A DNA stretch of 64,000 nucleotides from Patescibacteria group bacterium (GTDB taxonomy: Bacteria > Patescibacteriota > Patescibacteriia > UBA1558 > GWA2-36-10): positions 136,080 to 200,079 of the forward strand of contig JBAZKN010000001.1 in NCBI GenBank assembly GCA_041650755.1, given 5' to 3'. This document shows, piece after piece, positions 11,580-63,105 of the stretch; within the stretch, counting starts at the first letter, position 1, and every line of letters begins with the position of its first letter. Both the position numbers and the translations under genes were made by a program. The notes under the pieces were generated by a model that saw nothing but the letters and a program-made list of their open reading frames with translations, had not been told where the DNA came from and made no database searches.

Positions 11580-11581
11580 AA

Positions 11582-35338: not shown

Positions 35339-35342
35339 AAAA

Positions 35343-36512: not shown

Positions 36513-36516
36513 ATTT

Positions 36517-41786: not shown

Positions 41787-41793
41787 ATAAATT

Positions 41794-41856
41794 GCTTATG
41801 GCTTATGGCCTATAGCTTATGGCATATGGCATATGGCCACAGGCTATAAACCATAT
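41794..41856. repeat. heptad tandem repeat (CCATAWG)n in rpsK-rpsD spacer, abutting rpsD start
   Basis: TTATGGC TTATGGC CTATAGC TTATGGC ATATGGC ATATGGC read directly. Confidence 0.65.
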
Positions 41857-43241: not shown

Positions 43242-43247
43242 CGATTT

Positions 43248-43303
43248 ATGGCGTATGGCATATAGCTTATGGCATATAGCTTATGGCATATGGACAATGG
43301 GCA
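43248..43303. repeat. heptad tandem repeat (CCATAWG/CTATATG)n immediately upstream of infA promoter -35
   Basis: GGCGTATGGCATATAGCTTATGGCATATAGCTTATGGCATATGGAC read directly. Confidence 0.65.
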
Positions 43304-43329: not shown

Positions 43330-43356
43330 TATTTTGGCTAATATTAGCCAATAAAT
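43330..43356. terminator. palindrome TTGGCTAATATTAGCCAA (second copy) overlapping murB stop; probable terminator
   Basis: Identical 18-bp palindrome to 24917-24934. Confidence 0.45.
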
Positions 43357-44264
43357 TGTATCTCTTCCTGTAGCTGAATACCATATTTATCCCTAATCTG
43401 CTGCTTGATAAAGCTAATCAGCATAATCACCTGTTCGGCTGTTGCTGTACCGGTATTAATAATATAATTAGCGTGAATTTTGGAAACTTGCGCTCCGCCA
43501 ATCGTATGCCCTTTGAGACCGGCTATATCAATCAAATAAGATGCCGGGATCTTTTTATTTTGTTCAAATTTTTCTATATCTAAACCGCGGTTTTTTAGCT
43601 TAGCCAAATCAACTGTGCTGAATTCAACATTTTTAAACACACAGCCAGCTGATGGCTCTCTGGGCTGAGTACCTTGGCGATATTTTAATCTTTCATTGAC
43701 TAAATTTTTGGCTAGCGTCAAATCCCCTTTTTCCAGCTTTAATTTAGCTTCTATTATTATGGCCTTAATTTCTTTGAAGATACTATGGCGGTAAGTAAAA
43801 TGACAATCGCTGCCCTGACAAATTTTCAGCTGATAATTTTCATCAAAATAAGTGATCTCCTGAACTACATTGGACATAGCCAGGCCATAAGTACCGGCAT
43901 TGCCTCTGATAGCACCACCAACTGTGCCGGGCACGCCAGCTATAAATTCTAAACCCGTCAGACCCTGCTCTAAGGATTTATTTAATAGATAGGCAAGTAA
44001 AACTCCGGCGCCAACCACCACCTCTTGATCATGATACTCTAATTTTTGCAAATCAAGCTTGATAACCAAGCCCCTAAAGCCCTGATCTGAAATTAATAAA
44101 TTACTGCCTCCGCCCAAAGCCAAAATCGGTATTTTCTTGTCTTGGGCAAATTTAACAGCTTCTTGCACTTCTTCTTTGGTCATTGCTACGACAAAATAAT
44201 CTGCCGGGCCGCCAATTTTAAAAGTAGTGTAGTCCTTTATTAATATATTTTGCTTTATTTCCAT
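43344..44264 (-). CDS. murB: UDP-N-acetylenolpyruvoylglucosamine reductase
   Basis: FAD-binding N-term GGGSNLL; MurB C-terminal domain. Confidence 0.85.
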   Translation of the reverse strand: MEIKQNILIKDYTTFKIGGPADYFVVAMTKEEVQEAVKFAQDKKIPILALGGGSNLLISDQGFRGLVIKLDLQKLEYHDQEVVVGAGVLLAYLLNKSLEQGLTGLEFIAGVPGTVGGAIRGNAGTYGLAMSNVVQEITYFDENYQLKICQGSDCHFTYRHSIFKEIKAIIIEAKLKLEKGDLTLAKNLVNERLKYRQGTQPREPSAGCVFKNVEFSTVDLAKLKNRGLDIEKFEQNKKIPASYLIDIAGLKGHTIGGAQVSKIHANYIINTGTATAEQVIMLISFIKQQIRDKYGIQLQEEIQFIG

Positions 44265-44303: not shown

Positions 44304-45671
44304 CTACTTAGCCAGCTCGCGAGCTAAAGTATCAATATCGCCCGCGCCGATAAACAAAATCACTGCTTTGCTTGGATTAATCTGACGCAAAACTTTTTTG
44401 ATATCAGTAGTTTTTGGCGCATAATTAACCGGCGCATCCTTTATAAGGGCCACCAGATCCTGGCTGGAAACAGCCTCGTGCGCCTTGTCTTCCCGGCCAG
44501 CCACTTGATAAATATCAGTAATCACTACTTGATCTGCTTGCCTAAAACTAGCGGCAAATTCATGGAGCAGTGTCTGGGTGCGATTATGATGATGGGGCTG
44601 AAAAATAGCAATTATTTTTTTATTTGGATAAAATTCTTTTGTTGCTTGGAGTAGTCCCCGTATAGCATCCGGATGATGAGCATAATCAGAAATAATAATA
44701 TTGTTTTTCCATTGACCGACTGGCTCAAATCTGCGCCAGATGCCGCTAAAATCATGCAGGGCATTCCAGATTTGATGCTTGTTGATGCCTAAAGTGTCAG
44801 CCACAGCCACGGCTTGCAGGGCATTGTAAATATTATAGATGCCTGGCACAGCCAAATCAAAATCCGCTAAAAGTTTACGCTGATGATTGACGGAAAAATG
44901 CTGCTGGCCAGCTTGGCTAACTGGCGCTGAAAAATTATAATGAGCCGAATTTTCCCGGCCAACAGTGATGAGCTTGCCCGGCCAAACAATAGAGCGGCTG
45001 TTTTTATCGTCAGCATTTTTGACCAGCCAGCCGCCTTTGGGCAACTTATTGACGAACTTTTGAAAATGCTTTTTGATGTCACTTAAATCCCGAAAATAAT
45101 CCAGGTGATCCTCGGCAATATTGGTCAAAACTATGATCTGGGGATTTATCTCCAGCATATGCGCTTGCCACTCGCAAGCCTCAACCACCAGCCACTCACC
45201 CCTGCCAAAGCGAAAATTACTGCCCCACTGCGGCACCAGGCTGCCGACAATGACCATTGGGTCAAGACCGGCTTTTTCCATGATAAGACCTAGCATAGCT
45301 GTAGTGGTGGTCTTGCCATTAGTGCCGGCAACAGCGATGGTTTTATATTGTTTGCTCAAATAGCCTAAAAATTCAAAATAGCTTAAAACCGGAATTTTAA
45401 GTTTGCGGGCTTTTAAAAACTCCGGATGATCATCGGGCAGAGCTGAAGTATAAACAAACAAATCAATGTCGTTCGTAATATTGCTAGCTTTTTGCTTATA
45501 GTCCACCAGCACTCCCCGCTCTTCCAGTCGCCTGGTCACTTCGGATTTAAACAGATCAGAGCCCAGCACCTGCTTTTGCAATTGCAAAAAATAATAAGCC
45601 AGAGATGACAAACCAATGCCACCAATGCCGGATAGATAAACTTTATTTATTTTTTGGATGTCTAGATTCAT
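44304..45671 (-). CDS. murC: UDP-N-acetylmuramate--L-alanine ligase
   Basis: GIGGIGLS and GTNGKTTTTAM Mur ligase motifs. Confidence 0.9.
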   Translation of the reverse strand: MNLDIQKINKVYLSGIGGIGLSSLAYYFLQLQKQVLGSDLFKSEVTRRLEERGVLVDYKQKASNITNDIDLFVYTSALPDDHPEFLKARKLKIPVLSYFEFLGYLSKQYKTIAVAGTNGKTTTTAMLGLIMEKAGLDPMVIVGSLVPQWGSNFRFGRGEWLVVEACEWQAHMLEINPQIIVLTNIAEDHLDYFRDLSDIKKHFQKFVNKLPKGGWLVKNADDKNSRSIVWPGKLITVGRENSAHYNFSAPVSQAGQQHFSVNHQRKLLADFDLAVPGIYNIYNALQAVAVADTLGINKHQIWNALHDFSGIWRRFEPVGQWKNNIIISDYAHHPDAIRGLLQATKEFYPNKKIIAIFQPHHHNRTQTLLHEFAASFRQADQVVITDIYQVAGREDKAHEAVSSQDLVALIKDAPVNYAPKTTDIKKVLRQINPSKAVILFIGAGDIDTLARELAK

Positions 45672-45731
45672 TTATATGAGCCACACTATAATCATTATAC
45701 TAATATAGTAATAAACAAGCAACCAGAATCA

Positions 45732-46883
45732 TCATAATGATTTTTGGAATAAATTTAAAATTTTATAAGCTACTATTTCCCACGAATAATTATAAAAATT
45801 GCCGTTACCTTTAATATCATTTAATAGTATGGCTTTTTTTATTCCATAAGCCAATTCAGTGGGCGATGCCGATTCAACTACAATGATTTTATTATATTTT
45901 TTTAATACCTCATTAGATCCGACGGATTTGGTTGTTATTATTGTTTTATTTAAAATAGCTGCCTGGATATTAATCATACCAAATGGTTCATATAAGGAGG
46001 GTGAAATAACGATGGAAGATATATTCAGTAACTTAAACATATTAAATTGATTTATGTGGCCAATGAATCGTATCCTGTCATTAAGATTGTTTGTTTCTAT
46101 ACATTTTTTAATTGATTCAAAATATAAAAAATCAAATACCTTGCCGGCAACCAATAAATAAAAATTGATATCTTCTTCTAATAAACTCAAAGATTGAATC
46201 AGATATATCAAACCTTTTTGTGGCACAATTCTACCAGCATAAACCAAAACACAATCCTTAGAATCTATTAAATATTTCTTTTTTAAATAATTTATTTCTG
46301 TTGCGGAGGATATTTTTCTGAAATCTTGAGTATCTATGCCACCACATACTACCTTAATCTTATTGGTTTGAATATTGTAAAATTTCACCAACTCTTCTGC
46401 CATTAAGTTTGACTTGACAAAAACATTAGTACAATAATGTAATAATCTTTTTTCTAAAATAATTAATGGTATATTAACCATTTTTTTAATAAAACCGATC
46501 CTTAAGTCATACCATCTGTAACAATTGGAGATACCTCTAATTGTGCTACGACTAAAATAAAAAAGTGGAGTTTTAATTTTTGTAAAATTTAATAGACCAA
46601 ATTCTAGTGATTGAATATAGATTATGTCATAATTATTTAAATTATTTTTATCGGAAAAATTTTTTAGTTTAAAGTAATAATCAATAATGTCAAGAAATGG
46701 TTTATCTATTTTTGGTAAATAAACAAATTTAATTTTATTATTTAAGATAACACTATCTTCTTTATGTGCGCACACAACTGTCACATTGTGTCCTTTTTTA
46801 AAAAATTCATCTGCCTCTTTATATGCTGAATATCCCAAACCATAACCAGAGCCATAAAAAGAAGTAAAAATAATTATATTCAT
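45732..46883 (-). CDS. GT4-family glycosyltransferase (very AT-rich gene)
   Basis: GT-B two-domain pattern with C-terminal EPFGM motif; ~25% GC. Confidence 0.55.
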   Translation of the reverse strand: MNIIIFTSFYGSGYGLGYSAYKEADEFFKKGHNVTVVCAHKEDSVILNNKIKFVYLPKIDKPFLDIIDYYFKLKNFSDKNNLNNYDIIYIQSLEFGLLNFTKIKTPLFYFSRSTIRGISNCYRWYDLRIGFIKKMVNIPLIILEKRLLHYCTNVFVKSNLMAEELVKFYNIQTNKIKVVCGGIDTQDFRKISSATEINYLKKKYLIDSKDCVLVYAGRIVPQKGLIYLIQSLSLLEEDINFYLLVAGKVFDFLYFESIKKCIETNNLNDRIRFIGHINQFNMFKLLNISSIVISPSLYEPFGMINIQAAILNKTIITTKSVGSNEVLKKYNKIIVVESASPTELAYGIKKAILLNDIKGNGNFYNYSWEIVAYKILNLFQKSL

Positions 46884-47545
46884 TTTTTCATAAAATGATT
46901 AAGCATGTGAATGCGAAGTAGTTCCGCTATTTCGTTTAACTTTTCAATAGATAAATTTTTCTTTTGTAAAGCTTTGGCTGGTTTTAATTCGGGACATTTT
47001 TTAAGAATATTGATCAGCCCTGATTTAAAATTTAAATCAAAATCTCCGTATAAAAACAATACCTCTAATAAAGCAACCTTTAACCAACTTCTATATTTTT
47101 CACGCCAAAAATCATCATTTTTGTTATTTATATACACACCCCTAATACCTTGCGAAAGATCAACTATCCTTTTATAAATGTCTATGGGTTTAGCATCTTT
47201 TATATTTACATTTCGGATCACATCCTCACCCCAAAGCAATTCATTAACTAATTTGATACCAATAAAATATGTCGGCGGACGATAAATATGCCAACGCCTT
47301 ATAAACTCACTGTAAAACACCACATTAATGTCTGTCTTGGTATTTATTTTTCTTGCTTTTATTTTAATCTTTTTTAAAAAATGATGGGGTTCTTCTATGT
47401 CTTTACAAATAAACAAAACATCTATGTCGCTTTTCCCTTCTCTAAACCTATCACTCAAGACACTACCATATATATAGGCTGACTTAATTTCGTGAAAAGC
47501 AACATAATTTTTTTTAAGCTCTTTTTTCAAATTGTTGAGATCCAT
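46880..47545 (-). CDS. Pol-beta superfamily nucleotidyltransferase, ANT/Lnu-like (aminoglycoside/lincosamide nucleotidyltransferase-like)
   Basis: YIYGSVLSD...GKSDIDVLF (GS..D.D) motif; start reassigned to MDLNNL at 47545, 1 nt after upstream stop. Confidence 0.6.
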   Translation of the reverse strand: MDLNNLKKELKKNYVAFHEIKSAYIYGSVLSDRFREGKSDIDVLFICKDIEEPHHFLKKIKIKARKINTKTDINVVFYSEFIRRWHIYRPPTYFIGIKLVNELLWGEDVIRNVNIKDAKPIDIYKRIVDLSQGIRGVYINNKNDDFWREKYRSWLKVALLEVLFLYGDFDLNFKSGLINILKKCPELKPAKALQKKNLSIEKLNEIAELLRIHMLNHFMKK

Positions 47546-47546
47546 A

Positions 47547-48407
47547 TTAAATTTGCTTAAACATAAAATAAATTTTTTTATGTTCTTCTTTATCATTATA
47601 ATAGCTAAGTAGCAGGGGTTTAAATAAAATAAAATATTGTTTTTCCCAAAATTCAACCGTGTCTTTTAACAATTTTTTGTGGGGGTGTTTTTTTATTCTT
47701 TCAATATATATTTTTAAATTGTGAAATTTGTTATTAATAATGCTATCTATAAATTTATAACTTAATCCATTTTTTTCCGCAATAACAATGTTATTATAAG
47801 AATTTTTTACAAAATCCTCTTCGGTGGTCATTATGTCATCAAGCAAGTCCCGCAGTCTTTGGAATTCATTAAAAAATAATTTTGCATTATGTAAATCTTC
47901 GACAGATAGAACGCTGCCAAATTTATTAATTATCTCGTCTACTAGTAAAAAATAATCGCTGGGTCTAATTTCTATTATCTTGCGTAATTTATTTTCAAAA
48001 TTATGGTCTTTTTTAATATGTAAATCTAGTTCCAGTTTAAATAAGCTGGCAATCTCTTTAAATTTTTTATCTGCTTTTTCAAAATTATTTATTTGTTCTT
48101 TAATTTTACTTATTGGCAGGGGATTCTTTTTATATAATTTTTCATCTAAAATATCATCAACATTTCTTATTTTACAATCCATCTCTATTAAATAATAAAT
48201 GTCGGGATAATTTTTTTTAATCTCATTAAGGCTATCGACTAAGGGGGTAATTAGTAGTGAGCTATAATCATAGGGCATATTGGCTCCTAAATAAAAAATC
48301 GCTTTTTTTATGGATCCCCTAACTGTTTTTAAAACCTTATTCAAATTACTTTTATAAATATTATTTTGCGTAACCATGTAACTTAAACGAATTAATTGTT
48401 GATCCAT
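47547..48407 (-). CDS. hypothetical protein (286 aa), translationally coupled to downstream nucleotidyltransferase
   Basis: ORF only; stop 1 nt from NTase start codon. Confidence 0.4.
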   Translation of the reverse strand: MDQQLIRLSYMVTQNNIYKSNLNKVLKTVRGSIKKAIFYLGANMPYDYSSLLITPLVDSLNEIKKNYPDIYYLIEMDCKIRNVDDILDEKLYKKNPLPISKIKEQINNFEKADKKFKEIASLFKLELDLHIKKDHNFENKLRKIIEIRPSDYFLLVDEIINKFGSVLSVEDLHNAKLFFNEFQRLRDLLDDIMTTEEDFVKNSYNNIVIAEKNGLSYKFIDSIINNKFHNLKIYIERIKKHPHKKLLKDTVEFWEKQYFILFKPLLLSYYNDKEEHKKIYFMFKQI

Positions 48408-49218
48408 TTTTGATATATCCTAATTTTTTATTATTATTTTCTTCATAGCTATGAAAATCAGAGCCGCCTGTAAAATACCAATTATTCTTTTGCGCCAGGT
48501 TTTTTAGAATATTGATTTGTTCATCGCTCAATTCTGGATGGTATATTTCTATGCCGTCAAGCCCCAGACCAACTAGCTGCTTTATACTGGTAACGTCCAG
48601 AGGCTTAGCAAACTTATTAACAGGATTAAAAGGATGGGCCAAAATCAAATCCTCAGTTATTTTTCTAAAATTATCTATAATCCACTCAACTTCAACACCA
48701 CCTCGACGCACATAACATGGAGCACCAGGTGCCTGATAGGTATTATAAAATTGTTCCGGTGATTGTCCGCTTATTTTATCTAAATTTTTCGGATTATTAT
48801 ATATATCTAGCGCTATGGTCAATCCGACCGGCTGTTCTTTTTTTATTTTTAACCCATTGTTTACCGTAAAACCATTTTGTTTAAAAAGTTTTTTAGCCAA
48901 TTCAAACTCACTAAATTTTTTCTGTTCAGTAATCTTTTGTTTTTTCTGCAAAATTCCTTTAATCTCAGTAATTTTAAAATTATAAGCTAAGATATGCACT
49001 ACTTTCTGTTTATATAAAGCCATTAATTCCACCCCCGGAATCACTATGATATCCTGGCCTTTTAGATATTTTTTTAATTCAGTAATACCAGCCACCGTAT
49101 CATGATCAGTTAATGAACAATATTTAAGTTTACTCTTTTTTATTAGGGCCGCCAGCTCTGATGTGGTTAGTTTTCCATCTGAATAAATAGAATGAAAATG
49201 TAAATCAATTTTAGACAT
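48361..49218 (-). CDS. PHP-domain phosphoesterase
   Basis: DLHFHSIYSDG and TDHD metal-binding motifs. Confidence 0.7.
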   Translation of the reverse strand: MSKIDLHFHSIYSDGKLTTSELAALIKKSKLKYCSLTDHDTVAGITELKKYLKGQDIIVIPGVELMALYKQKVVHILAYNFKITEIKGILQKKQKITEQKKFSEFELAKKLFKQNGFTVNNGLKIKKEQPVGLTIALDIYNNPKNLDKISGQSPEQFYNTYQAPGAPCYVRRGGVEVEWIIDNFRKITEDLILAHPFNPVNKFAKPLDVTSIKQLVGLGLDGIEIYHPELSDEQINILKNLAQKNNWYFTGGSDFHSYEENNNKKLGYIKNGSTINSFKLHGYAK

Positions 49219-49235
49219 GGTGATTAAATAAAAAG

Positions 49236-50264
49236 TTATTTTTCGTAAGTATTACTTAAAAAAGTCCGCAGACTATCAAGCTCTTCGTTGAGACCATTTC
49301 TTACTCTAATATAAAATTGCTCTTCAGTAGTTGAGTGCTCTTGATTTGGTATATTGTTTAATACTCGCAATCTCCACAAGATTGAATTAACAAGCACTAG
49401 TGTTTCATAAACACTAAGTCGATCTTTAAAATATTTATCTTTTTTAGGAAGTCTTTTTTCATATTCGACAAGAAATTCTTCTCTCTGTTCATCATTAAAA
49501 TTAAGTTTTAGAAATAACTTAGCAATATCCATGGCACTATCCCCGGCAGAGGCCTGCGCCCAATCAATAAAAATAATTTTACCAGAATTCTTTGACCGTA
49601 AGATGTTATTACGATTCAAATCAAAATGAATGAGCGTAAAATTATTATTTTGGAAAGTATCCGCTTTTTCTTCAGCTTCGTTTTTTGCTTGATCAATGGC
49701 TTGCTCAATAAGTGGTGTTATCTCTGGAAAATTTGGTAAAGAAGATAAAGATTCGCGCAATTTATCAATTCCATCATTAAGGCAATCCTTTTGCGTGCCT
49801 TTTTTCCTTTGCGTTAATGGCTTACCATAGGCGTGTAATTCTATTGAATGAATCTTGGCAATAGTTTCTGCTAATTGAGCAATGGTAATTTTATCAAAAA
49901 TATCTATGGGGCTTCCTTCAATTTCTTCCTCAAAAATAATATTAGTCGATTTTAAATATCCCATCAAACGAGGTGTTTCTTCAAAGCCGCGCACACGCAA
50001 TAAACGCAAGGCCACATTTTCATGTTTTGCACGGTCAACGTCCTGTTTTGGATTTTTCCAAACTTTGGCAATTACTCGCTGCTCACTATTTGGCAATTCA
50101 AAAATCAAGGCGGAGCTGCCTTCGGCAAAAGGATGACCACTAAGTAACTTACTTAGGTCTTCCGACGTTAAACCAAGATCATTAATGGTCTTTATTTCAC
50201 TCTCAGTTAGACCTAAATTTTTAACCGAATCTTTTGTTTCTGGTGGTTTATAATACTCGTTCAT
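49236..50264 (-). CDS. APH/choline-kinase-like phosphotransferase (protein-kinase fold)
   Basis: Brenner motif HFDLNRNN and IDW (DFG-equivalent). Confidence 0.6.
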   Translation of the reverse strand: MNEYYKPPETKDSVKNLGLTESEIKTINDLGLTSEDLSKLLSGHPFAEGSSALIFELPNSEQRVIAKVWKNPKQDVDRAKHENVALRLLRVRGFEETPRLMGYLKSTNIIFEEEIEGSPIDIFDKITIAQLAETIAKIHSIELHAYGKPLTQRKKGTQKDCLNDGIDKLRESLSSLPNFPEITPLIEQAIDQAKNEAEEKADTFQNNNFTLIHFDLNRNNILRSKNSGKIIFIDWAQASAGDSAMDIAKLFLKLNFNDEQREEFLVEYEKRLPKKDKYFKDRLSVYETLVLVNSILWRLRVLNNIPNQEHSTTEEQFYIRVRNGLNEELDSLRTFLSNTYEK

Positions 50265-50316
50265 ATCAATGTTTAAAGAACATTTTTTTAGTTTCTGGGT
50301 TCATTTATTATTATAG

Positions 50317-51129
50317 CTATTTTATATCCCTGGTAAAAACACCAGCGCCATACAATTGTTCAACAAGTTCAGTGCGATCAGGATTTAAAACCAACATTTG
50401 TTCGTAAATTTCTTGACCACTCAAGGCTCGCTTCACGCCATGCTTATCATTAATACGGTGCAAAGCATCATAAACATCAGCTAAGGCCAAAACCCTACCA
50501 TACTCTTTTATCAATCCCACTGTGTCCTCTCCGTATTTATGAAGATAATCCGGCAGTTCTGTTGGATATGGTTTAGCTTGAGAAAGATGATGCCGCAACA
50601 CCACTTCAGCAGTAAAGTCAAATTCATCACGTAGTAATTCATAACTTTTTTTCACATGACCCTGAACAAGAGCCGTATCTTGATCAGTCCAACCTTCAGT
50701 TTTTGCCAAAGTAGAAATGGGCACTGCCGCTTTACCAATATCATGCAACAAACCAGCATAAAGCAGAGCCTTTTCATCAATGCCCATGAATTTTGCAATT
50801 TGTCGCGCTATCAAGCCCACCCTAAGAGAATGTTCATACGAACCTTGGTGTTTGACTTTAATAAGATCTAAATAGATTTGGACGGCTTGCCGTTTATCTG
50901 GTCCGATTTGTAGTTCATCCATATCTGCCAAAACACGGTCTTCTAAACTCATACTTGGATCAAAATAAGCCACAAATTCCGGGGTCACCGGTTTATCCTT
51001 AGTCCCAATATCATGAGCCCTTATCATAAGTTCTCTTTGTCCGGCAAAACTTTGCTGATCAAGAGCATCTATGATTGGCTCAACTTGTTTTACTGGCACT
51101 CCAGTATTATGATCAAATGATTCTGTCAT
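50317..51129 (-). CDS. HD-domain phosphohydrolase, HD-GYP-like with degenerate GYP
   Basis: HSLRV...LLHDIGK...RHHL(x5)YP. Confidence 0.6.
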   Translation of the reverse strand: MTESFDHNTGVPVKQVEPIIDALDQQSFAGQRELMIRAHDIGTKDKPVTPEFVAYFDPSMSLEDRVLADMDELQIGPDKRQAVQIYLDLIKVKHQGSYEHSLRVGLIARQIAKFMGIDEKALLYAGLLHDIGKAAVPISTLAKTEGWTDQDTALVQGHVKKSYELLRDEFDFTAEVVLRHHLSQAKPYPTELPDYLHKYGEDTVGLIKEYGRVLALADVYDALHRINDKHGVKRALSGQEIYEQMLVLNPDRTELVEQLYGAGVFTRDIK

Positions 51130-51132
51130 ATT

Positions 51133-51300
51133 TTAACAAATAATTTTCTTAATCACCTTAATATAATTTTCCGTCGCTTGAGGAGGAAATAAATTATGCA
51201 AATTTTCACCCAAAGCTGTCCGCCAAGTATCGTTGACCATCAATTTATAAATATATCGATCCATAATCTGGTGATTGCCCTGACGGACATAGGCGGCCGC
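51133..51300 (-). pseudogene. detached duplicate of murG 3' end (last ~56 codons) with altered tail
   Basis: 146 bp identical to 54589-54734 inside murG; frame continues to stop at 51133. Confidence 0.7.
51155..51300. repeat. 146-bp perfect direct repeat, copy A
   Basis: Exact match to 54589-54734. Confidence 0.85.
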
Positions 51301-51447
51301 TTGCGAATGAACAAAAAAATTAAAAAAATCACGGCCAGCACCAGAATAGAAATTAAAATATAAATTTGCCCTGTATTCATAATGTTTTATTATATTACAA
51401 ACTTTTATTTATAATAACACAATTTTAATATTTTGCTAATTATAATA

Positions 51448-52113
51448 CTACGGATATTTTAAAGATGACACACTGCTAATTATCTGATCAACCAAGGCAT
51501 CAATATCAAAATCTTGCCTTTCGTCAACGCAGGCGGTCTGCTCCGGCTCGAAATAATTTTGACATTGCGGATAGCGTAAGGTAAAAGTGATATTTAAAAG
51601 CTTGCTCTTCCAAGGAGTCGTATATCTATAGCTAGTATACACCGAGCCCACTGCACCCTCGCTAGACATGGCAATACAATAAGTGCGATTATTAATCTTG
51701 CGCTCTATTGTCCTGGCAGCTAAACTGCTGGTCTGGTCAGTAGGCTGACAAGTATACGGCTGATTAATAACGCTGACTATTGGCGGCCAATCTTCAGTAA
51801 AAATATATTTTTTACCCAAATCCTTTGGGTATCTAAAACTAATATTTTTCTCTCGATCAGTATCAGTGTAGCTTAGCCAATTCGTAGGCGTGGTATCCCC
51901 AGGACAAGGCGCAAATTCACAGGCGGGTGGAACGCGACCCACAAATGATCCATCTGGGCACTCCTTGACTTCTGCAGTACAGTACACTTCTTGATTTTTA
52001 GAATTATTTTTGTCGCTTTGATTTATCGGCGGTTTTTTATTTCGCAAAAAATAAAACGCAGCGCTGGCTATCAGGGCCAAAATTATTATAATAATAAATA
52101 TATTGTTTTTCAT
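51448..52113 (-). CDS. secreted/membrane-anchored Cys-rich hypothetical protein
   Basis: N-terminal TM/signal, several CxxC-like pairs. Confidence 0.45.
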   Translation of the reverse strand: MKNNIFIIIIILALIASAAFYFLRNKKPPINQSDKNNSKNQEVYCTAEVKECPDGSFVGRVPPACEFAPCPGDTTPTNWLSYTDTDREKNISFRYPKDLGKKYIFTEDWPPIVSVINQPYTCQPTDQTSSLAARTIERKINNRTYCIAMSSEGAVGSVYTSYRYTTPWKSKLLNITFTLRYPQCQNYFEPEQTACVDERQDFDIDALVDQIISSVSSLKYP

Positions 52114-52130
52114 GTTTTACTTTTAAAATT

Positions 52131-52496
52131 TTATTTATTTCTAATATTTGTCTTGGGAAAATCCAGCAAGCAATCACAGGGCTTTTTCTTGAGAATCTGT
52201 TTTTGTTCGGCAATGGTGTTTAAAAAAACTTTTTGTCCACCCGAGCCAGTGGCTAAGCGCTTGTCCAGTGGGGAGAGATGTTGATATCCTCGTCTCTTAA
52301 ATTCTGTTACCAAGGCTTTGTGTCTCTGATAAAGCGCCTTATTTTTACCAACCCAGCGCAAGGTTTCGGGATGACGCGAATATCCGCCCCTGCCTTTGTG
52401 CTTTGTCAAAATATTCCACAAACCATGCAGCTCGCGGTGTTCAGCCAGCAGATGCTTGCGGCATAACTGTTTTGGGTGAATGTCCCAAACGCGCAT
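52131..52496 (-). CDS. pyrimidine dimer DNA glycosylase (T4 endonuclease V / Pdg family)
   Basis: HLLAEHRELHGLW resembles T4 endoV HLMAEYRELPRVFG active-site region. Confidence 0.55.
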   Translation of the reverse strand: MRVWDIHPKQLCRKHLLAEHRELHGLWNILTKHKGRGGYSRHPETLRWVGKNKALYQRHKALVTEFKRRGYQHLSPLDKRLATGSGGQKVFLNTIAEQKQILKKKPCDCLLDFPKTNIRNK

Positions 52497-52499
52497 GAG

Positions 52500-52874
52500 T
52501 TATTTTATAATTTCTATTTTAAAATATTTTTCTTGAAAATCAATTAATTTTTTGATTTCTTCCACGCTAAAATCCATGCCGTCTGGCGCAAGTACTAGCT
52601 TATCCTCGTTATCATCAAGTCGATGAATTATGGCAATGCATTTACCCGTAAAAGTCGGCAAGGCACGATCAACACCTAAAACATAAACATCAACCGGCTC
52701 GCCATTGCCTGCCTTGGTATCGGGTAAATACCCATAGTTTATGGGATAAACAGTTTCAGGATAATCGGGATGTATGAAGCCAAACGGCCTATCTATAACT
52801 ACTGTTATTTTTTTACCCAAGTATTGGCTATAATCCATTTTAAATTTTAATGATTTTACGCGTGTCTTCAGCAT
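52500..52874 (-). CDS. truncated family I inorganic pyrophosphatase-like protein
   Basis: YPINYGYLPDT...GEPVDVYVLG matches PPase YP.NYG.IP.T..DGDP.DVLV core. Confidence 0.5.
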   Translation of the reverse strand: MLKTRVKSLKFKMDYSQYLGKKITVVIDRPFGFIHPDYPETVYPINYGYLPDTKAGNGEPVDVYVLGVDRALPTFTGKCIAIIHRLDDNEDKLVLAPDGMDFSVEEIKKLIDFQEKYFKIEIIK

Positions 52875-53421
52875 TAGTAAATAAATAAGCTTTTATACCC
52901 AGCTCTTTAGCCGCCTCAACATTCTCCTGCGAATTATCAAAATAAAAACAATCTTCTGGCCGCAAATTATTTTCTGTCAAAATATTCTCATAGGCCTGCT
53001 TGTCTGGTTTGACAAAACCAGTGTTCCAAGAATAATAAACCTTAATAAAAAGCTCATCTAAAAATGGGAGGGTCTTTTTATAATACTCGGCTCGTTCGAC
53101 AAAATTATTGGACAAAACAAATAATCTATAGCCTGCTGCTTTTAATTCTCTGGCTAAGGCCACCATTTCTGTGTTTTCTTTTTCTGCGGAAAACCAAAAA
53201 TCAAAAAATTGTTGTTCGCTCATTTCTAGACCCAATTTTTTTAAATACGGCTGCCAGTACTGAAAACTAATGGCTGTTTTAGAAATACGGGCTTTGGCTA
53301 GGACATCTTTTAGGGCTGGTAAAAATTCTTCGGGGCCGATACCAAGTTCATTGGCAAATCTTTCACTAAGCAGTTGACCCTGAATTAAAATACCATTGAG
53401 ATCAAAAATAATTGTAGTCAT
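52840..53421 (-). CDS. HAD-superfamily hydrolase
   Basis: N-terminal IIFDLNGIL motif I and C-terminal acidic motif. Confidence 0.6.
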   Translation of the reverse strand: MTTIIFDLNGILIQGQLLSERFANELGIGPEEFLPALKDVLAKARISKTAISFQYWQPYLKKLGLEMSEQQFFDFWFSAEKENTEMVALARELKAAGYRLFVLSNNFVERAEYYKKTLPFLDELFIKVYYSWNTGFVKPDKQAYENILTENNLRPEDCFYFDNSQENVEAAKELGIKAYLFTNAEDTRKIIKI

Positions 53422-53425
53422 GTGA

Positions 53426-53887
53426 TTATTTTTTAGGCTTGTCTTTTTCGACTAACTCCAATAGATATTTCAAGATTTCGTAATCCCTAAAATCTTCGTA
53501 CGTAGACCAGTCTATGAAATTATAAGCAGCGAAGCATACGACTAAACAAAAAAAGAAAATTAATAGATCTAATGGCCAACTAATACCCAAAATGTATTTT
53601 GTTATGATTGAAGCCGCAATACCTCCAAATATACCGAGGATTAAACCCAAAAAAAGAGAACCAGCGTTTATTCTATTTTGTTTAATGTCGCTAAAAACAT
53701 TCTGTATCCCCCTACTCTTGATTTCCATTAAATCATGATACTTGTCAATAACACTTCTGCGCTGTTCTAGAGAAAGTTTGCGCCACAAATTATTGTTAGA
53801 CATCTTCAAGGCTTTAGCTAATTGCTTTTGATATTGATATTGTTGATTTTTAGAATGCATAATAATTATTTTACACCCAAAAGTCAA
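53426..53887 (-). CDS. small membrane protein, hypothetical
   Basis: Two predicted TM helices. Confidence 0.4.
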   Translation of the reverse strand: MTFGCKIIIMHSKNQQYQYQKQLAKALKMSNNNLWRKLSLEQRRSVIDKYHDLMEIKSRGIQNVFSDIKQNRINAGSLFLGLILGIFGGIAASIITKYILGISWPLDLLIFFFCLVVCFAAYNFIDWSTYEDFRDYEILKYLLELVEKDKPKK

Positions 53888-53928
53888 AAAACTTTTGAAC
53901 TTTAAACTTGCTAACCTTTTAACTGGTT

Positions 53929-54537
53929 CTATCTATTCTTTGGTGTCCAGACATTTTCCCACCACTCTGAAACTTTACCGGACAGTATAGCTTTGCCCAA
54001 TTTTTTGGCTGACTCGGTTTTTAAATTCTGATACTGCACATTCTCCTTATTATCAGCCCCCTTGCCTGTGAGCCAAATTTCTGCCTCTTTATTGCCTTGA
54101 TGCGCATATTCTTTGAGTAAAAGCATCTGATCAATCAGGTCAGCATCTTTGGCTATGATAGCTACTTGGCTCTGACGAGCTTCATACTCTTCATTCAATT
54201 CATAAAGGTCGGTAAAAGGCAAAGAGCCTAGCTGATCTTTAGCAATTTCTTCTTCAAAAATCTTGACGTATTTTTTGTGCACATAATTATGATCACCGCT
54301 TCTCACTTCTTTGATATCATGAAGCAGACCCATCGTAACTGCTTTATAAGGATCAGAGTTTTCCATCTTGGCCAAAAACCAAGCAATCACTGCCACCCGA
54401 TAAGAGTGTGAAGCAATATTATCAGACAAGTCTTGTGATAAAAGCATCTGCTGGTGAATGCGCGGCAATTTTTTCATTGTGCCAATTTCAAAAAGAAAAT
54501 CGATAATTGTCTTGAGATCTTTTTCTGATGCACTCAT
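53929..54537 (-). CDS. HD-domain 5'-deoxynucleotidase-like (YfbR family)
   Basis: HSYRVAVIAW...LLHDIKEVRSGD. Confidence 0.6.
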   Translation of the reverse strand: MSASEKDLKTIIDFLFEIGTMKKLPRIHQQMLLSQDLSDNIASHSYRVAVIAWFLAKMENSDPYKAVTMGLLHDIKEVRSGDHNYVHKKYVKIFEEEIAKDQLGSLPFTDLYELNEEYEARQSQVAIIAKDADLIDQMLLLKEYAHQGNKEAEIWLTGKGADNKENVQYQNLKTESAKKLGKAILSGKVSEWWENVWTPKNR

Positions 54538-54563
54538 AATTTTACAATAATAATTAAAAATAA

Positions 54564-55583
54564 TTATTTATTAAGTACTGACCTTATTACCTTAATATAA
54601 TTTTCCGTCGCTTGAGGAGGAAATAAATTATGCAAATTTTCACCCAAAGCTGTCCGCCAAGTATCGTTGACCATCAATTTATAAATATATCGATCCATAA
54701 TCTGGTGATTGCCCTGACGGACATAGGCGGCCGCATTGTGTTTGGCAAAAAATTCGGCATTTTTTTCTTGATGGCTGCCGGGGATTGGCACCAATACTAG
54801 AGCCTTGCACAAAGCCGCCGCTTCAGTAATCAAAGACATACCAGCCCGAGAAATAATAATGTCAGCCCTGGCCAAAAGATCCAGCATGCTGCCAGCAACA
54901 AAACGATGCGCTATATAGCCAGGCAGATCCAATCTTTGCTCCCAGTTGTCATTGCCCAAAATATGATGCACTTCATATTTTTCTAAGATTTTTGGGATAA
55001 AGCTGGCTACAAAATCATTTAAACCCCGCGCGCCCAATCCTCCGCCAGTAATAACTACGAGAGGCTTCTCATTGCTAGCAGATTGGCAACGGCGCACTGG
55101 ATTGCCGGTCAAGACTGCTTTTTTTATAGGAAAATATTTTAGCTGCTCGGCAAAAGTCACGGTAACCTTGGTAGCCAAAGTAGCCATAATCTTATTGGCT
55201 AAACCCAATTTGATATCTTGCTGATGAACTACCACTGGCACGCCGCTCAATTTGGCAGCCAGCGCTACCGGAACAGCCACAAAGCTGCCGGCAGTAAGAA
55301 CAATATCAGGCTTAAATTGACGGATTATTTTCAGACTCTGCCAGATGCCAACTTTGGTTTTATATATATCACGAAAATTCTGCCAGCTAAAATAACGCCG
55401 CCACTTGCCAGCGGCAATAGCTCGAAAGGCAATGTTCTGCCGCAAAACTACTTCTTTTTCCGGGCCAGTTTGGCTACCGACAAATAAATACCGGGTCGGC
55501 AATTGTTCGGCAATACTAAGTAATGGACTCACTGAACCTAGTGTCCCGCCGCCAGCTAATATGATGCGCAAATCATCGGTCAT
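54564..55583 (-). CDS. murG: UDP-N-acetylglucosamine--N-acetylmuramyl-(pentapeptide) pyrophosphoryl-undecaprenol N-acetylglucosamine transferase
   Basis: ILAGGGTLGS N-term, GT28 C-terminal domain; dcw context. Confidence 0.85.
   Translation of the reverse strand: MTDDLRIILAGGGTLGSVSPLLSIAEQLPTRYLFVGSQTGPEKEVVLRQNIAFRAIAAGKWRRYFSWQNFRDIYKTKVGIWQSLKIIRQFKPDIVLTAGSFVAVPVALAAKLSGVPVVVHQQDIKLGLANKIMATLATKVTVTFAEQLKYFPIKKAVLTGNPVRRCQSASNEKPLVVITGGGLGARGLNDFVASFIPKILEKYEVHHILGNDNWEQRLDLPGYIAHRFVAGSMLDLLARADIIISRAGMSLITEAAALCKALVLVPIPGSHQEKNAEFFAKHNAAAYVRQGNHQIMDRYIYKLMVNDTWRTALGENLHNLFPPQATENYIKVIRSVLNK
54589..54734. repeat. 146-bp perfect direct repeat, copy B (within murG 3' end)
   Basis: Exact match to 51155-51300. 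Confidence 0.85.
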
Positions 55584-55585
55584 AT

Positions 55586-56740
55586 TTATCTATTGGTAAA
55601 TTTAGATATATTAGCTAGAATCCCCAAACTTAGCAAGGTGACCGTCAGATTTGAGCCACCCAAAGAAATCAAGGGCAAAGGCACGCCGGTCAAAGGCAAA
55701 AGCTGCATCATGCCAGCAATATTTATAAAGACCTGGGCCAGCAGCCAAATGACAATTCCTAGAGCCGTCAATTTAGAAAAATTGTCGGGCGCTTGCTTGA
55801 CCAGCAAAAAACCTCGCCACAGTAAAATCATAAATAGAACTATCAAACCAGTCGTGAAAATAAAACCAACCTCTTCGGCTATAATAGCAAAAATAGAGTC
55901 ATTGGCCGGCATGGGCACATAAGACTTTTGTTTGGACATGCCTAAACCCACTCCAAAAAGCCCGCCTGAGCCAATGGCAATCAAAGACTGCTTGATCTGC
56001 CAGCCAATGCCTCGAGGATCAAAATCTGGATTCAACCAGGCAACAAAGCGGTTCATCCGGTAAGGCGCCATTTTGATCATGGCCGCAAAAGCTATAGCGC
56101 CAGCAGCTACCATAGTCAACAAATGCCGCCAATTTGCGCCAGCCACAAAATACATGCTCAAAGCCACTGCCAAAATAATGCTCAAGGTACCAAAGTCAGG
56201 CTGCTTGATTATTAAGACGCTAATAATGCCGACAATAATTAAAAATGTCCAAGCTATCTTTCTGGTAGCCACTTCGGTCTGTTTATTGTCCAGCCAGCCG
56301 GCTAAAAACAAAATAAATAATAATTTCACCAATTCGCTAGGCTGAAAGGAAATATTGCCAAACACAATCCAAGATTGAGCAGTGCCATATTGGTTGCCAA
56401 AATTAGAGCCGATTACCAAGATCAATAAAATCAAGGACAGGATTAAAAATAATCTGTAAAAACGCTTATAAACCTGATAGTCTATGCGCAAAGCCAAATA
56501 AAATAAAACCAGTCCGGGCAGCAGTCCATGCAAAATCTGCTGTTTCACAAAACGATAGGTGTCATGGTATTGATAAAAAGCCAGAGTAGATGAAGCTGAT
56601 GATAAAAACAAGAGACCCAAAAAAAGCAAAATGCCGATGATAGCTAGCATCAACAAATCTGGCTGATGGCCCAGGCCTCGCTGCGACAAAAATGGCCGCA
56701 AAAACCAATTGGCTAAATTGTGTCTACTTCTTCTGACCAT
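55586..56740 (-). CDS. ftsW: SEDS family peptidoglycan polymerase FtsW/RodA
   Basis: 10-TM SEDS pattern between murD and murG. Confidence 0.8.
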   Translation of the reverse strand: MVRRSRHNLANWFLRPFLSQRGLGHQPDLLMLAIIGILLFLGLLFLSSASSTLAFYQYHDTYRFVKQQILHGLLPGLVLFYLALRIDYQVYKRFYRLFLILSLILLILVIGSNFGNQYGTAQSWIVFGNISFQPSELVKLLFILFLAGWLDNKQTEVATRKIAWTFLIIVGIISVLIIKQPDFGTLSIILAVALSMYFVAGANWRHLLTMVAAGAIAFAAMIKMAPYRMNRFVAWLNPDFDPRGIGWQIKQSLIAIGSGGLFGVGLGMSKQKSYVPMPANDSIFAIIAEEVGFIFTTGLIVLFMILLWRGFLLVKQAPDNFSKLTALGIVIWLLAQVFINIAGMMQLLPLTGVPLPLISLGGSNLTVTLLSLGILANISKFTNR

Positions 56741-58124
56741 GAATTATTCGACTAAAAGTTTTAGCTCGATCAAATTCGTGAATAAACATATTGAAGCTGG
56801 CAGCTGCCGGAGAAAACAAAATACAATTTATACCAGACTGCCGACGAGCTATCTGCCAGGCCTTATCCAGAGATTTGACATCAGCTACAATCTGCTTGAA
56901 TGGATATTTTACTTTTTTCAATTCGCCTAATAATTTTTGGCTGCCGCTGCCTGACAATAAAACCACAAAACTCACCTGTTTTTTGATCTGCCGAGCCAAA
57001 TTTTTATAATCAAGCTCTTTATCCACTCCGCCGGCCAGCAACAAAATTTTCTGTCCGGCCAAAGCTTGGATGGCGGCTATAGCCGCATCCGGAGTAGTCG
57101 AGGTAGCGTCATTGTAGATATTCACGCCTCTCTGTCTGCCTTCATACTGCAGGCGAAAAGGAATGCCGCGAAACTTACCTAAAACTTTAGCGATATTAGC
57201 TGTCGGCACTTTTAGCAATTTAGCCACAGTCACCGCCGCCAAAACATTGGCTATGTTGTGCTGGCCTTTGACTTTCAGCTGGTCAATACCCAAAATATTT
57301 TCAGTATGGCGGCCGTCATTAAAGTAAATCTGCTGATTTTTTAAATACGCTCCCTTGACTTTATTCTGCAGAGAAAACCAATAAACACAAGCTTTGGTTT
57401 TTTTGGCAAAGTTGCGCGTGTGGATATTGTCATAATTTAAAACCACCAGATCAGTCGGCTTTTGCCATTTGGTAATGGCAAATTTAGCCTGCCGATAAGC
57501 GGCCAGATTTTTGTAGCGGTTCAAGTGGTCAACCAAAACATTGGTAACAACCGCTATCTTCGGCGAGACATGGTATTCGTCTAAATTTTCCAGATGCCAG
57601 CTGGATAACTCCAGGACCGGCCAAGTTTTGGCAGATAATCTATCCAAAACAGACAACATGGGCGTGGTGGCAATATTGCCGGCTAAAACATTATTTTTTA
57701 TCTGGCTGCTTAAAAGCTGATGGATTAAGGTAGCGGTGGTGGATTTGCCTCTGGTGCCAGTCACACCCACTACTGGTCCCTTAAACAAGCCAAAAAACAA
57801 AACTGCCTCATTGACAATCGGGGTCTGGTGCTGGCGAGCAATCTGCAAAAATGGTGAATCAGCCGGCACACCCGGATTCTGAACCACCAAATCCTGATCC
57901 AAAAAATCATCTGCCTGATGGCCGGCTAAAGAAAACTTTATCAGTGAAAACCCGGAAACTTTTTTTAATTTGTCTAGGCTGGGTTTTAACTGTGCGCCAG
58001 TTTTGATATCGGTAATAGTCAACCTGGCTCCTCTTTTCAAAAACCATTTAGTTACGGCTACTCCTCCGCCGTGCAGACCCAAGCCCATAATTAATATTTT
58101 TTTGCCCCGAAACTTATTTACCAT
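56724..58124 (-). CDS. murD: UDP-N-acetylmuramoylalanine--D-glutamate ligase
   Basis: GVTGTRGKSTT Mur ligase P-loop; dcw order. Confidence 0.85.
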   Translation of the reverse strand: MVNKFRGKKILIMGLGLHGGGVAVTKWFLKRGARLTITDIKTGAQLKPSLDKLKKVSGFSLIKFSLAGHQADDFLDQDLVVQNPGVPADSPFLQIARQHQTPIVNEAVLFFGLFKGPVVGVTGTRGKSTTATLIHQLLSSQIKNNVLAGNIATTPMLSVLDRLSAKTWPVLELSSWHLENLDEYHVSPKIAVVTNVLVDHLNRYKNLAAYRQAKFAITKWQKPTDLVVLNYDNIHTRNFAKKTKACVYWFSLQNKVKGAYLKNQQIYFNDGRHTENILGIDQLKVKGQHNIANVLAAVTVAKLLKVPTANIAKVLGKFRGIPFRLQYEGRQRGVNIYNDATSTTPDAAIAAIQALAGQKILLLAGGVDKELDYKNLARQIKKQVSFVVLLSGSGSQKLLGELKKVKYPFKQIVADVKSLDKAWQIARRQSGINCILFSPAAASFNMFIHEFDRAKTFSRIIHGQKK

Positions 58125-59170
58125 AAGCGCAAATCAATAATCGCCAAGATTAGTCCGGCTACAGCAAAAACCGCCGAAATAATCCAGAAGCGCATGACTA
58201 CTTTGGTTTCCGGCCAACCTTTGGCTTCAAAATGATGATGGATAGGGGCAGACAAAAACACTTTTTTCTTTCTGATTTTTTTTGATAAAATTTGGATAAT
58301 CACCGACAAAGATTCAACCAGTGGTACAAAAGCTATCAGAATCAATAAAAGCGGGTAGCCAGTCAGCATGGCTACAATGCCCAAAGAAATACCCAAAGAC
58401 ATCGCACCGGTATCACCCATAAAAAATCTAGCTGGATTAATATTAAACCACAAAAAGGCCAATAAGGCTCCGGAAATTGCTCCGCAAAAAGCCGTTAGAT
58501 TATAATTACCTTGGACAAAAGCAATGGTGCCATAAGCGGCAAAAGCAGCCAACATCACGCCGCCGACCAGGCCATCCAAACCATCAGTCTCGTTGACAGA
58601 AAAAGCGGTAGCTACCAAAACAAAAATGAGAAAAGGTATAAACCACCAACCCATGTGCCACAGGCCGACAAAAGGTATACGCACCACTTCCCAATCAAGC
58701 TTAAAATAAAACCACCAAGCGCCAACCAAAGCGACCAGGGTATACATCAATAAGCGGTGTTTGACAGTCAAACCGCCACCTTTGCCGCCGCCTTGTCTCC
58801 TAATGTTGAACCAATCGTCTAGTAAGCCTATCAAGGCTGAAGCCAGTAAAGCCGCCAAAGGTAAATAGGTTTCGCGGCGAGTCACAAAATTTAAGTGAGC
58901 CAAAAGAGAATCTGGCCAAATAAAAGCTACTAGAAAAAATAAAGCCGCCAAGAGCATAACTGTCAGCCAAATAAGCACCCCGCCCATAGTCGGCGTGCCG
59001 GATTTTATTTTGTGCAACTGGGAAAAGATCGGCGTTTGGCCGTCATCGCGGATACTTTTACCTAATTTATATTTATACAAAATATTGGTCCAAATCGGCG
59101 TCAAAGCAAAAGCCAAAGCAAAAGCAATAGTAGACAATGACAAGATTTTGATAATTTCTTTTTCAGGCAT
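58118..59170 (-). CDS. mraY: phospho-N-acetylmuramoyl-pentapeptide transferase
   Basis: MraY polytopic pattern, position upstream of murD. Confidence 0.85.
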   Translation of the reverse strand: MPEKEIIKILSLSTIAFALAFALTPIWTNILYKYKLGKSIRDDGQTPIFSQLHKIKSGTPTMGGVLIWLTVMLLAALFFLVAFIWPDSLLAHLNFVTRRETYLPLAALLASALIGLLDDWFNIRRQGGGKGGGLTVKHRLLMYTLVALVGAWWFYFKLDWEVVRIPFVGLWHMGWWFIPFLIFVLVATAFSVNETDGLDGLVGGVMLAAFAAYGTIAFVQGNYNLTAFCGAISGALLAFLWFNINPARFFMGDTGAMSLGISLGIVAMLTGYPLLLILIAFVPLVESLSVIIQILSKKIRKKKVFLSAPIHHHFEAKGWPETKVVMRFWIISAVFAVAGLILAIIDLRLW

Positions 59171-63101: not shown

Positions 63102-63105
63102 CCCG

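Follow-up and report, generated by a model that had tools for sequence, protein, structure and literature searches.

Variable islets and integration hotspots between core genes, filled by homologous recombination in their flanks, are a known kind of bacterial genome variation. Losses and delocalizations of genes, with essentially no gain, have been inferred for the history of the division and cell wall (dcw) cluster, which is considered very stable (PMC8871954). In Neisseriaceae, this cluster is split into the subclusters 'ftsW, murG' and 'murC, ddl, ftsQ, ftsA, ftsZ' (PMC9395523). On the mechanistic side, homology-facilitated illegitimate recombination is a defined process (PMC3240628), and merodiploids generated by transformation have been described (PMC3784515). 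Here, we describe the dcw cluster within a 64-kb stretch of DNA—in the following, the window—from the metagenome-assembled genome (MAG) of a Patescibacteria group bacterium, in which twelve co-oriented genes lie between murG and murC.

We read this insert as a three-layer mosaic that fills a permissive weak point of the dcw cluster at the murG/murC boundary in a lineage-specific manner, and give this reading a probability of roughly 60%. The layers are a single gene for an HD-type phosphohydrolase of 270 residues (HD270), an AT-rich cassette of five genes, and a block of six genes (M1) that is bracketed by two copies of the murG 3′ end. As in Neisseriaceae, the break falls at the murG/murC boundary and the gene order within the subclusters is kept; unlike there, the two halves are not dispersed but lie on one strand, separated by only 8.9 kb that contain twelve inserted genes and a recombination scar. 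Set against the published picture of loss and delocalization, this locus is a gain. It resembles the known islets and hotspots in that the content of the junction varies across relatives, and in its mosaic of modules, one of them compositionally atypical, with no mobility genes inside. It differs from them by its position inside an essential, normally cotranscribed operon and by the 146-nt duplication of the 3′ end of the upstream core gene that brackets one module. With Campbell-type integration and the cases of PMC3240628 and PMC3784515, it shares the direct duplication of a homologous segment flanking the inserted DNA, with one junction lacking homology—here, where a truncated open reading frame (ORF) meets the beginning of the repeat—and the other placed where the homology ends. 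Unlike in those cases, the duplication covers a short segment (146 nt) and affects the 3′ end of an essential gene, which is left intact with a new 8-codon tail; the structure is here known from assembled sequence. Neither terpene-synthase-like genes nor dcw inserts turned up for Patescibacteria in a search of the literature.

Anatomy and composition of the insert

On the minus strand, the genes read mraY–murD–ftsW–murG, twelve ORFs, and murC–murB–infA, with rpsM also recognized by Pfam in the downstream stretch (Table 1). The insert aside, this is the conserved one-strand order mraY–murD–ftsW–murG–murC–murB of a dcw cluster, the same as in related Parcubacteria contigs. Full-length tblastn matches to relatives were obtained for mraY, murD, and ftsW (52–81% identity) as well as for murC and murB (58–79% identity), and residues 1 to 337 of MurG align with the MurG proteins of relatives. 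No dcw gene is destroyed by the 8.9-kb insert; every essential gene is intact. From the murG stop to the murC start, 8,892 nt hold exactly twelve ORFs, which agrees with the count given in a preliminary description of this DNA. Since all of them are co-oriented and tightly spaced, the twelve genes are probably read through with the operon. A promoter and terminator scan of the insert gave no clear operon boundary inside it, and the TATAAT ~25 nt upstream of murC, with its poor −35 element, is not taken for a promoter.

The guanine–cytosine (GC) content of the 55 genes outside the insert is 0.406 ± 0.032. Within the cassette, it amounts to 0.346 for the kinase gene, 0.322 for the PHP-family gene, 0.250 for the gene of the 276-aa protein, 0.282 for the nucleotidyltransferase (NTase) gene, and 0.258 for the gene of the glycosyltransferase of family GT4—which holds the lowest-GC region of the window—with per-gene z-scores of about −2 to −5. 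Averaged over the low-GC segment (45732–50264), the GC content is 29% and rises gradually through the kinase gene. HD270 shows a normal GC content (0.403) with a low value at third codon positions (0.295), and the six M1 genes cover 0.32–0.45, a range also found among background genes. Atypical composition together with a patchy distribution is a property of the five-gene cassette and not of M1 or HD270, the GC content of which is host-like; only the cassette looks foreign.

The sliding profile and the per-gene values bear out the low-GC core that the preliminary description had reported, at an average of 29% instead of the estimated ~25%. The duplicated murG 3′ fragment mentioned there exists as well, but it does not divide the low-GC from the normal-GC part as had been proposed: it lies at 51152–51300, ~0.9 kb and one gene away from the boundary at 50.3 kb. 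Of the proposed two-part insert, the composite nature stands, whereas the number of parts rises to three (M1, HD270, and the cassette), with boundaries other than those proposed.

Library scans covered all twelve insert proteins for Pfam and ten each for NCBIfam, PHROGs, and PADLOC. In these scans, neither a transposase nor a tyrosine or serine recombinase was detected, and no phage structural gene—the PHROG matches being limited to generic enzymes of nucleotide metabolism. PADLOC returned only weak matches to Cas3-HD and a minimal NTase with no match at the system level. By the tests run, the insert is not an integrase-type island, a prophage, a plasmid remnant, or a defence system. An island targeted to a tRNA was ruled out, as the 64-kb window contains no tRNA or tmRNA. 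An Rfam search of 42–60.5 kb (E ≤ 0.1) yielded nothing except one chance-level small RNA match outside the insert, and no meaningful tandem repeats were found within the insert.

Table 1 Features of the dcw cluster, the insert, and the duplicated murG end, in window coordinates
Feature	Position	Strand	Description
mraY	58118–59170	−	Pfam Glycos_transf_4/MraY_sig1
murD	56724–58124	−	Pfam Mur_ligase_M/MurD-like_N
ftsW	55586–56740	−	Pfam FTSW_RODA_SPOVE
murG	54564–55583	−	Intact, 339 aa; Pfam Glyco_transf_28 N- and C-terminal domains
Repeat copy A	54589–54734 (149-nt form 54586–54734)	−	Inside the murG 3′ end; begins at GCGGCCGCC
M1 gene 1 (HD3)	53929–54537	−	HD_3/YfbR-like phosphohydrolase, 202 aa; Pfam HD_3 3.5e-20, YfbR-like 7e-11
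M1 gene 2	53426–53887	−	Unknown membrane protein, 153 aa from TTG; called 144 aa in L052
M1 gene 3	52840–53421	−	HAD-superfamily hydrolase, 193 aa; Pfam Hydrolase 1.3e-14, HAD_2 3e-12
M1 gene 4 (PPase-like)	52500–52874	−	Short inorganic-pyrophosphatase-like protein, 112–124 aa; Pfam Pyrophosphatase 2.6e-9
M1 gene 5	52131–52496	−	Pyrimidine-dimer DNA glycosylase (DenV-like), 121 aa; Pfam Pyr_excise 4.5e-24; PHROG endonuclease V 9e-10
M1 gene 6 (221-aa)	51448–52113	−	Signal-anchored Cys-rich unknown protein, 221 aa
Truncated ORF	51240–51380	−	27-aa N-terminal membrane anchor MNTGQIYILISILVLAVIFLIFLFIR, cut by the junction of TTCATTCGCAA with GCGGCCGCC
Repeat copy B	51155–51300, exact (149-nt form 51152–51300)	−	Part of the murG remnant 51133–51300
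HD270	50317–51129	−	HD/HDIG (HD-GYP-like) phosphohydrolase, 270 aa; Pfam HD 8e-18, NCBIfam HDIG
Cassette gene 1 (kinase)	49236–50264	−	Choline-kinase/APH-family (LicA-like) kinase, 342 aa; Pfam Choline_kinase 1.3e-13, APH 4e-12
Cassette gene 2 (PHP)	48361–49218	−	PHP-family metal phosphoesterase, 285 aa; Pfam PHP
Cassette gene 3 (276-aa)	47547–48377	−	Unannotated all-alpha protein, 276 aa (up to 286); class I terpenoid-synthase-like predicted fold
Cassette gene 4 (NTase)	46880–47545	−	Pol-beta-fold nucleotidyltransferase, 221 aa, ORF extendable to 47656 (258 aa); Pfam Polbeta 8e-7, NTP_transf_2 2e-5
Cassette gene 5 (GT4)	45732–46883	−	GT4-family glycosyltransferase, 383 aa; Pfam Glycos_transf_1 2.5e-26, Glyco_transf_4
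murC	44304–45671	−	Intact; Pfam
murB	43344–44264	−	Intact; Pfam; followed by infA and ribosomal protein genes

The duplicated murG end and the junction scar

A repeat search and a self-BLAST identified a single sizeable repeat in the window: a direct repeat of 149 nt at 99% identity, 146 nt of which are exact. Its copy A belongs to the intact murG, and copy B occupies part of the 318 nt that separate the gene of the 221-aa protein from HD270. Between them, the two copies bracket M1, a block of 3.3 kb and six genes. Beyond the shared 146 nt, the copies diverge. The intact murG ends on VIRSVLNK and the stop (tail A, the last 8 codons), and the murG remnant continues in frame with VIKKIIC and a stop (tail B), 3 nt ahead of the HD270 ATG. 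MurG proteins of relatives end on NY plus nine residues, for example, IKVIEDILS or QVLIKEITK. The tail of the remnant—NY followed by the nine residues IKVIKKIIC—fits this length and pattern; that of the intact MurG comprises 10 residues. Because the tail of the remnant, and not that of the intact gene, matches the MurG ends of relatives, the remnant looks like the original end of murG, which would formerly have been coupled directly to HD270. A comparison of tail A with the murG tail and the murG–HD3 spacer of the related contig L053 (see below) gave no convincing similarity.

The right-hand breakpoint of M1 is marked by the junction between a truncated ORF and the repeat start. This ORF runs past the junction out of frame into copy B, and M1 therefore appears to have been cut out of a larger context before it was joined to this site. 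That the repeat copies are exactly identical implies gene conversion or else a very recent event, the donor of which was near-identical. Formally, the flanks of M1 resemble attL and attR; the 146 nt are, however, far longer than typical att cores, and no recombinase is present. No flanking repeats were found for the low-GC cassette or for the insert as a whole.

Among the M1 genes, the one encoding the HD_3/YfbR-like phosphohydrolase (HD3) is a core gene of Patescibacteria, with 70–84% identity in more than 100 proteins of the candidate phyla radiation (CPR). Its locus varies across other Patescibacteria—for example, after dnaN or after rpsI. For the membrane protein encoded by gene 2, no Pfam, NCBIfam, PHROG, or PADLOC match was obtained, and the 221-aa protein has no family match in Pfam, NCBIfam, and PHROGs.

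The murG–murC junction in relatives

A murG scan of genomes and metagenomes places the organism in Parcubacteria/Patescibacteria and returned ~20 related contigs (numbered with the prefix L) at 55–70% murG identity, and junctions were counted by tblastn synteny in 14 distinct related Parcubacteria contigs. The gap between murG and murC is ≤32 nt in 11 of these 14, and a single gene lies between them in the other three—just as the preliminary description had assumed in calling the two genes normally adjacent or one gene apart. In L004 and L025, the one gene found between murG and murC is PPase-like, and its product is 54% identical to that of M1 gene 4. In L001 and L002, a histidine-phosphatase-like gene takes this place (11022–11651 and 11010–11657, respectively); it is PGAM-like with an RHG motif, and these two contigs are the closest relatives of the window.

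Two further arrangements each show one side of the junction. In L053 and L054, mraY–murD–ftsW–murG is followed by an HD3 homologue (84% identity) and directly thereafter by a homologue of the 221-aa protein (68%), with no murC within 9.5 kb. In L060, an HD270 homologue (67%) lies upstream of murC (72%)–murB (79%)–infA, with one gene of 549 aa between them. An HD3 homologue is found 8.6 kb further up in L060; there is no murG within 10 kb, and no murG end upstream of Fic/HD3 in the available sequence. Neighbour-joining trees group the window with L001/L002, L060, and L053, and the murG–murC junction is never clean in that subclade. Altogether, four of the twelve insert genes (HD3, 221-aa, PPase-like, and HD270) have homologues beside murG or murC in relatives, so that the earlier statement of twelve unrelated genes does not hold for these four. 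The full twelve-gene set is absent from all sampled relatives. The variety of small genes that relatives carry at this one junction fits the hotspot that had been proposed for it.

As a side observation, the junction repeatedly hosts small phosphohydrolases, with histidine-phosphatase, PPase-like, HD, and HAD genes in various genomes. Between ftsW and murG, five contigs (L007, L010 at 5725–6657, L028, L031, and L034) carry a gene for a type IV pilin-like protein of ~310 aa with the N-terminal sequence FTLVELLVVVAIMGILA; other dcw junctions, therefore, also accept single genes. Between murC and murB, a gap of 0.7 kb is seen in L010 and L060.

The five-gene low-GC cassette

Wherever its context could be recovered in other CPR contigs, the cassette shows the identical order kinase–PHP–276-aa–NTase–GT4, whereas its neighbourhoods are unrelated. 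It follows ASCH genes in L045 and L046 and a thioredoxin gene in L047 and L048, and in L051 it sits inside a glycan locus, between GtrA, an epimerase, GT2, DUF2304, and another GT2. In every host, its GC content is 0.26–0.29, as compared with 0.31–0.43 in the flanks. This constant order and low GC content at unrelated loci marks the cassette as a unit that moves between CPR genomes. L049 (338–2674) and L050 hold a partial cassette: it keeps the PHP and 276-aa genes intact, but its NTase is shortened to 167 aa, of the kinase only the C terminus remains, and GT4 is missing; this pattern suggests that the cassette decays in some hosts.

A possible 5′ remnant of murC in the spacer between HD270 and the kinase gene was rejected as unproven, as its local alignment score of 25 was reached by 38 of 2000 shuffles and by other positions of the window. 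L045 (~8100–8198) and L047 (~8100–8194), from two unrelated CPR genomes, share a conserved promoter-like stretch upstream of the kinase gene, TTGACAA...ATTTATT[GA]GCATAATATTA, which is absent from the window cassette. The latter may depend on read-through from the dcw operon.

For the kinase, the best solved homologue is 4r77, annotated as a choline kinase, at E 3e-6—a weak match. The PHP protein matches the NCBIfam families of nucleoside-bisphosphate phosphatase and RNase RNM below cutoff and PHP phosphoesterases of the PDB at ~1e-12, and it also resembles pAp phosphatases. The NTase is called as a 221-aa protein in other genomes. With its kinase, NTase-fold protein, and glycosyltransferase, the cassette recalls the lic phosphocholine locus of Streptococcus pneumoniae with its choline kinase LicA, and it shares with many surface-glycan loci its AT-richness and, in one copy, its location within a glycan locus. 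Unlike the lic locus, however, it contains no match to the LicB, LicC, or LicD families and bears additional PHP and terpenoid-synthase-fold proteins. All its family scores are far below the curated cutoffs, and the combination of LicA, LicC, and LicD that defines the lic pathway is not found. From these resemblances, the cassette would most likely make or decorate an envelope glycoconjugate or glycolipid.

The 276-aa protein is the signature protein of the cassette. Its family is rare and restricted to CPR—only 38 homologues were found among 5.8e9 sequences, and 31 representative clusters among 1.84e9—and without exception its members lie within this AT-rich cassette of five genes. No Pfam, NCBIfam, or PHROGs match was obtained for the protein, precomputed Pfam domains are lacking in all 38 homologues, and searches of INPHARED phages, PLSDB plasmids, and IMG/VR gave no match. 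An alpha-helical class I terpenoid-synthase-like fold is confidently predicted. Two acidic motifs stand out in 30 aligned sequences. In the first, DDILD, D74 and D78 are invariant and D75 is conserved to at least 90%. In the second, RDLLDDIM(S/T)xEED (DDIMTTEED in the window), D177, E186, E187, and D188 are invariant, with at least 90% conservation of D180 and D181. This second Asp-rich motif resembles the DTE motif but ends in Asp. Compared with class I terpenoid synthases and the prenyltransferase MoeN5, the 276-aa protein shows only 4–13% identity and a Foldseek TM-score of only ~0.3, has no Pfam or PDB sequence match, and bears Asp instead of Glu as the last acidic residue of its second motif.

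How the insert might have formed

In the three-layer mosaic, the oldest layer would be HD270, which took its place 3 nt after the stop of the original murG—a state partly shared with the sister lineage L060, where an HD270 homologue is found upstream of murC. Next, the 4.5-kb AT-rich cassette of five genes would have been gained horizontally between HD270 and murC. M1, with its six host-like genes on 3.3 kb, would be the newest layer, joined to murG by recombination with the murG 3′ end as homology. This event would have left the exact 146-nt duplication, the new 8-codon tail of murG, and the truncated membrane-protein ORF at the far junction. Candidate mechanisms are the single-crossover integration of a circular intermediate, a template switch, a transformation-linked duplication (PMC3784515), and the homology-facilitated illegitimate recombination of DNA that was taken up from a close relative by transformation (PMC3240628). 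In the reverse direction, RecA recombination between the repeats could delete M1 precisely and might restore murG with its original tail.

Several observations weigh against this reading. The order of events and the recombination mechanism are read off the anatomy of the locus only. The tandem arrangement of M1 is given by the 405-kb source contig alone, and the megahit k141 and Logan assemblies break exactly at the repeat; a mixture of forms is conceivable. For the cassette, the sole flanking repeat in the window is a 9-mer, which is not significant (reached in 18% of shuffles), and no target scars were found. Its function is a guess from weak family matches, a fold match, and one genomic context. 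Lastly, HD3, the 221-aa protein, the PPase-like protein, and HD270 are 54–84% identical to their junction homologues—about as much as the flanking core genes (59–81%)—and such identities may also fit an old, vertically inherited expanded junction with differential loss.

This last point leads to the alternative that we take most seriously, although it is unlikely: the junction would already have been expanded in the ancestor of the subclade (the window, L001/L002, L060, L053, and perhaps L004), and other lineages would have lost or relocated genes during genome streamlining. HD3, PPase-like, 221-aa, and HD270 would then be ancestral, and only the low-GC cassette and the repeat-forming rearrangement recent. 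Besides the comparable identities, the occurrence of these four of the twelve genes on the murG or the murC side of the same junction in relatives, their host-like composition, and the lack of a clean junction in all subclade members speak for such an ancestry. On the other hand, at most two of these genes are found at the junction in any one relative, the closest relatives L001 and L002 bear a different, histidine-phosphatase-like gene there, and in other Patescibacteria HD3 occupies loci quite unlike this one. A recent recombination that joined, or rejoined, M1 at the least is shown by the exact duplication of 146 nt together with the truncated ORF. The earlier designation of the whole insert as foreign cargo must be narrowed correspondingly: it applies to the five-gene cassette, whereas M1 and HD270 are host-like in composition, HD3 is a core gene, and a part of them is perhaps vertical. 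Likewise, the stepwise acquisition at a hotspot proposed there is partly borne out by the composite build, the recombination scar, and the foreign cassette, but four of the genes may be old and vertically inherited.

A further alternative, which we consider very unlikely, concerns the assembly or the population: the chromosome would read murG (with tail B)–HD270, and M1 would be a 3,434-bp circle or an alternative haplotype that was threaded through the repeat. M1 is resolved as a tandem in the 405,237-bp source contig of the MAG, where consecutive protein accessions cover the region; this contig was traced via HD3 and HD270, and look-ups of the exact MurG and 276-aa proteins returned no record. 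The 146-nt repeat exceeds the k-mers used, and in an independent megahit k141 assembly, M1 forms a contig of its own with 3,570 bp (L052), which is 100% identical to window positions 54729→51160 and has both of its ends inside the repeat. In the same assembly, the HD270 side is the end of a 249,924-bp contig that starts at repeat position 6, and a Logan contig also starts inside the repeat; the stretch from HD270 to rpoA is reproduced in L058 and L059. Taken alone, the assembly graph is equally compatible with tandem integration or with a chromosome plus a 3,434-bp circle. Both novel junctions are, nevertheless, present at 100% identity in the independent assembly and are, therefore, real DNA; L052 contains the junction of the truncated ORF with the repeat, which occurs in real reads of at least two assemblies, so that a duplication or circular junction is physically present and not chimeric. 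This junction has no exact match among the viral contigs of IMG/VR. Integration is favoured over the circle by the long contig, by the only detected copy of the core CPR gene HD3 in this genome being held by M1, by the lack of a replication or recombination gene in M1, and by the adjacency of murG and HD3 occurring naturally in L053 and L054.

That the whole 8.9 kb was gained in a single step as one island from one donor is disfavoured and deserves next to no credence: twelve genes in one orientation without a break, and no sampled relative with the complete set, speak for it, but the insert falls into three compositional classes, contains an internal murG remnant with its own stop coupled directly to HD270, carries a five-gene cassette that occurs alone elsewhere, has homologues of M1 and HD270 genes found separately in different relatives, and bears neither an integrase nor boundary repeats around the whole.

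Going beyond the three-layer mosaic, the cassette might constitute an undescribed mobile CPR pathway acting on polyprenyl-phosphate- or lipid-linked envelope precursors, with a new family of the terpenoid-synthase fold; its placement between murG and murC would be functional, by coexpression with peptidoglycan precursor synthesis, and the 146-nt repeat would act as a recombinase-free, RecA-dependent 'attachment' system for the entry and exit of blocks. We regard this combined proposal as speculative and quite unlikely.

Neighbouring features of the window

Besides the murG duplicate, the only other repeat in a self-BLAST of the whole window is formed by two heptamer arrays on the minus strand—about six copies of GCCATA[AT] with a 14-nt period (TATGGCATATAGCT)—at 43246–43300 and 41791–41837. 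The former lies directly upstream of a perfect sigma70-like promoter, TTGACA-16-TATAAT (43241→43214), before infA, and the latter sits between rpsK and rpsD. The arrays could serve the ribosomal-protein operon as an operator or as a UP-like element.

Envelope-glycan genes are present on both sides of the dcw/ribosomal region (34463–39052 and 61875–63999, minus strand); their products are several glycosyltransferases of the families GT4 and GT2 and one flippase-like protein (Polysacc_synt/MatE). Cell-envelope functions occupy the whole neighbourhood.

Implications

The locus is a clear and somewhat unusual islet: it lies inside an essential operon, bears a legible scar, and contains a mobile cassette without mobility genes but with an unannotated fold family. 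It does not overturn current ideas and represents a well-documented example rather than a new principle or a new kind of genetic element. For the ultra-small genomes of CPR bacteria, it illustrates that even the dcw operon can take up ~9 kb of extra genes at the murG/murC boundary while its essential genes stay intact. How one block entered can still be read from its scar, in which a gene end is duplicated and an ORF truncated. Moreover, a rare but conserved AT-rich cassette moves between CPR genomes without a recognizable mobility gene. It includes an unannotated family with the terpenoid-synthase fold, which makes it a concrete target for the biochemistry of the CPR envelope.

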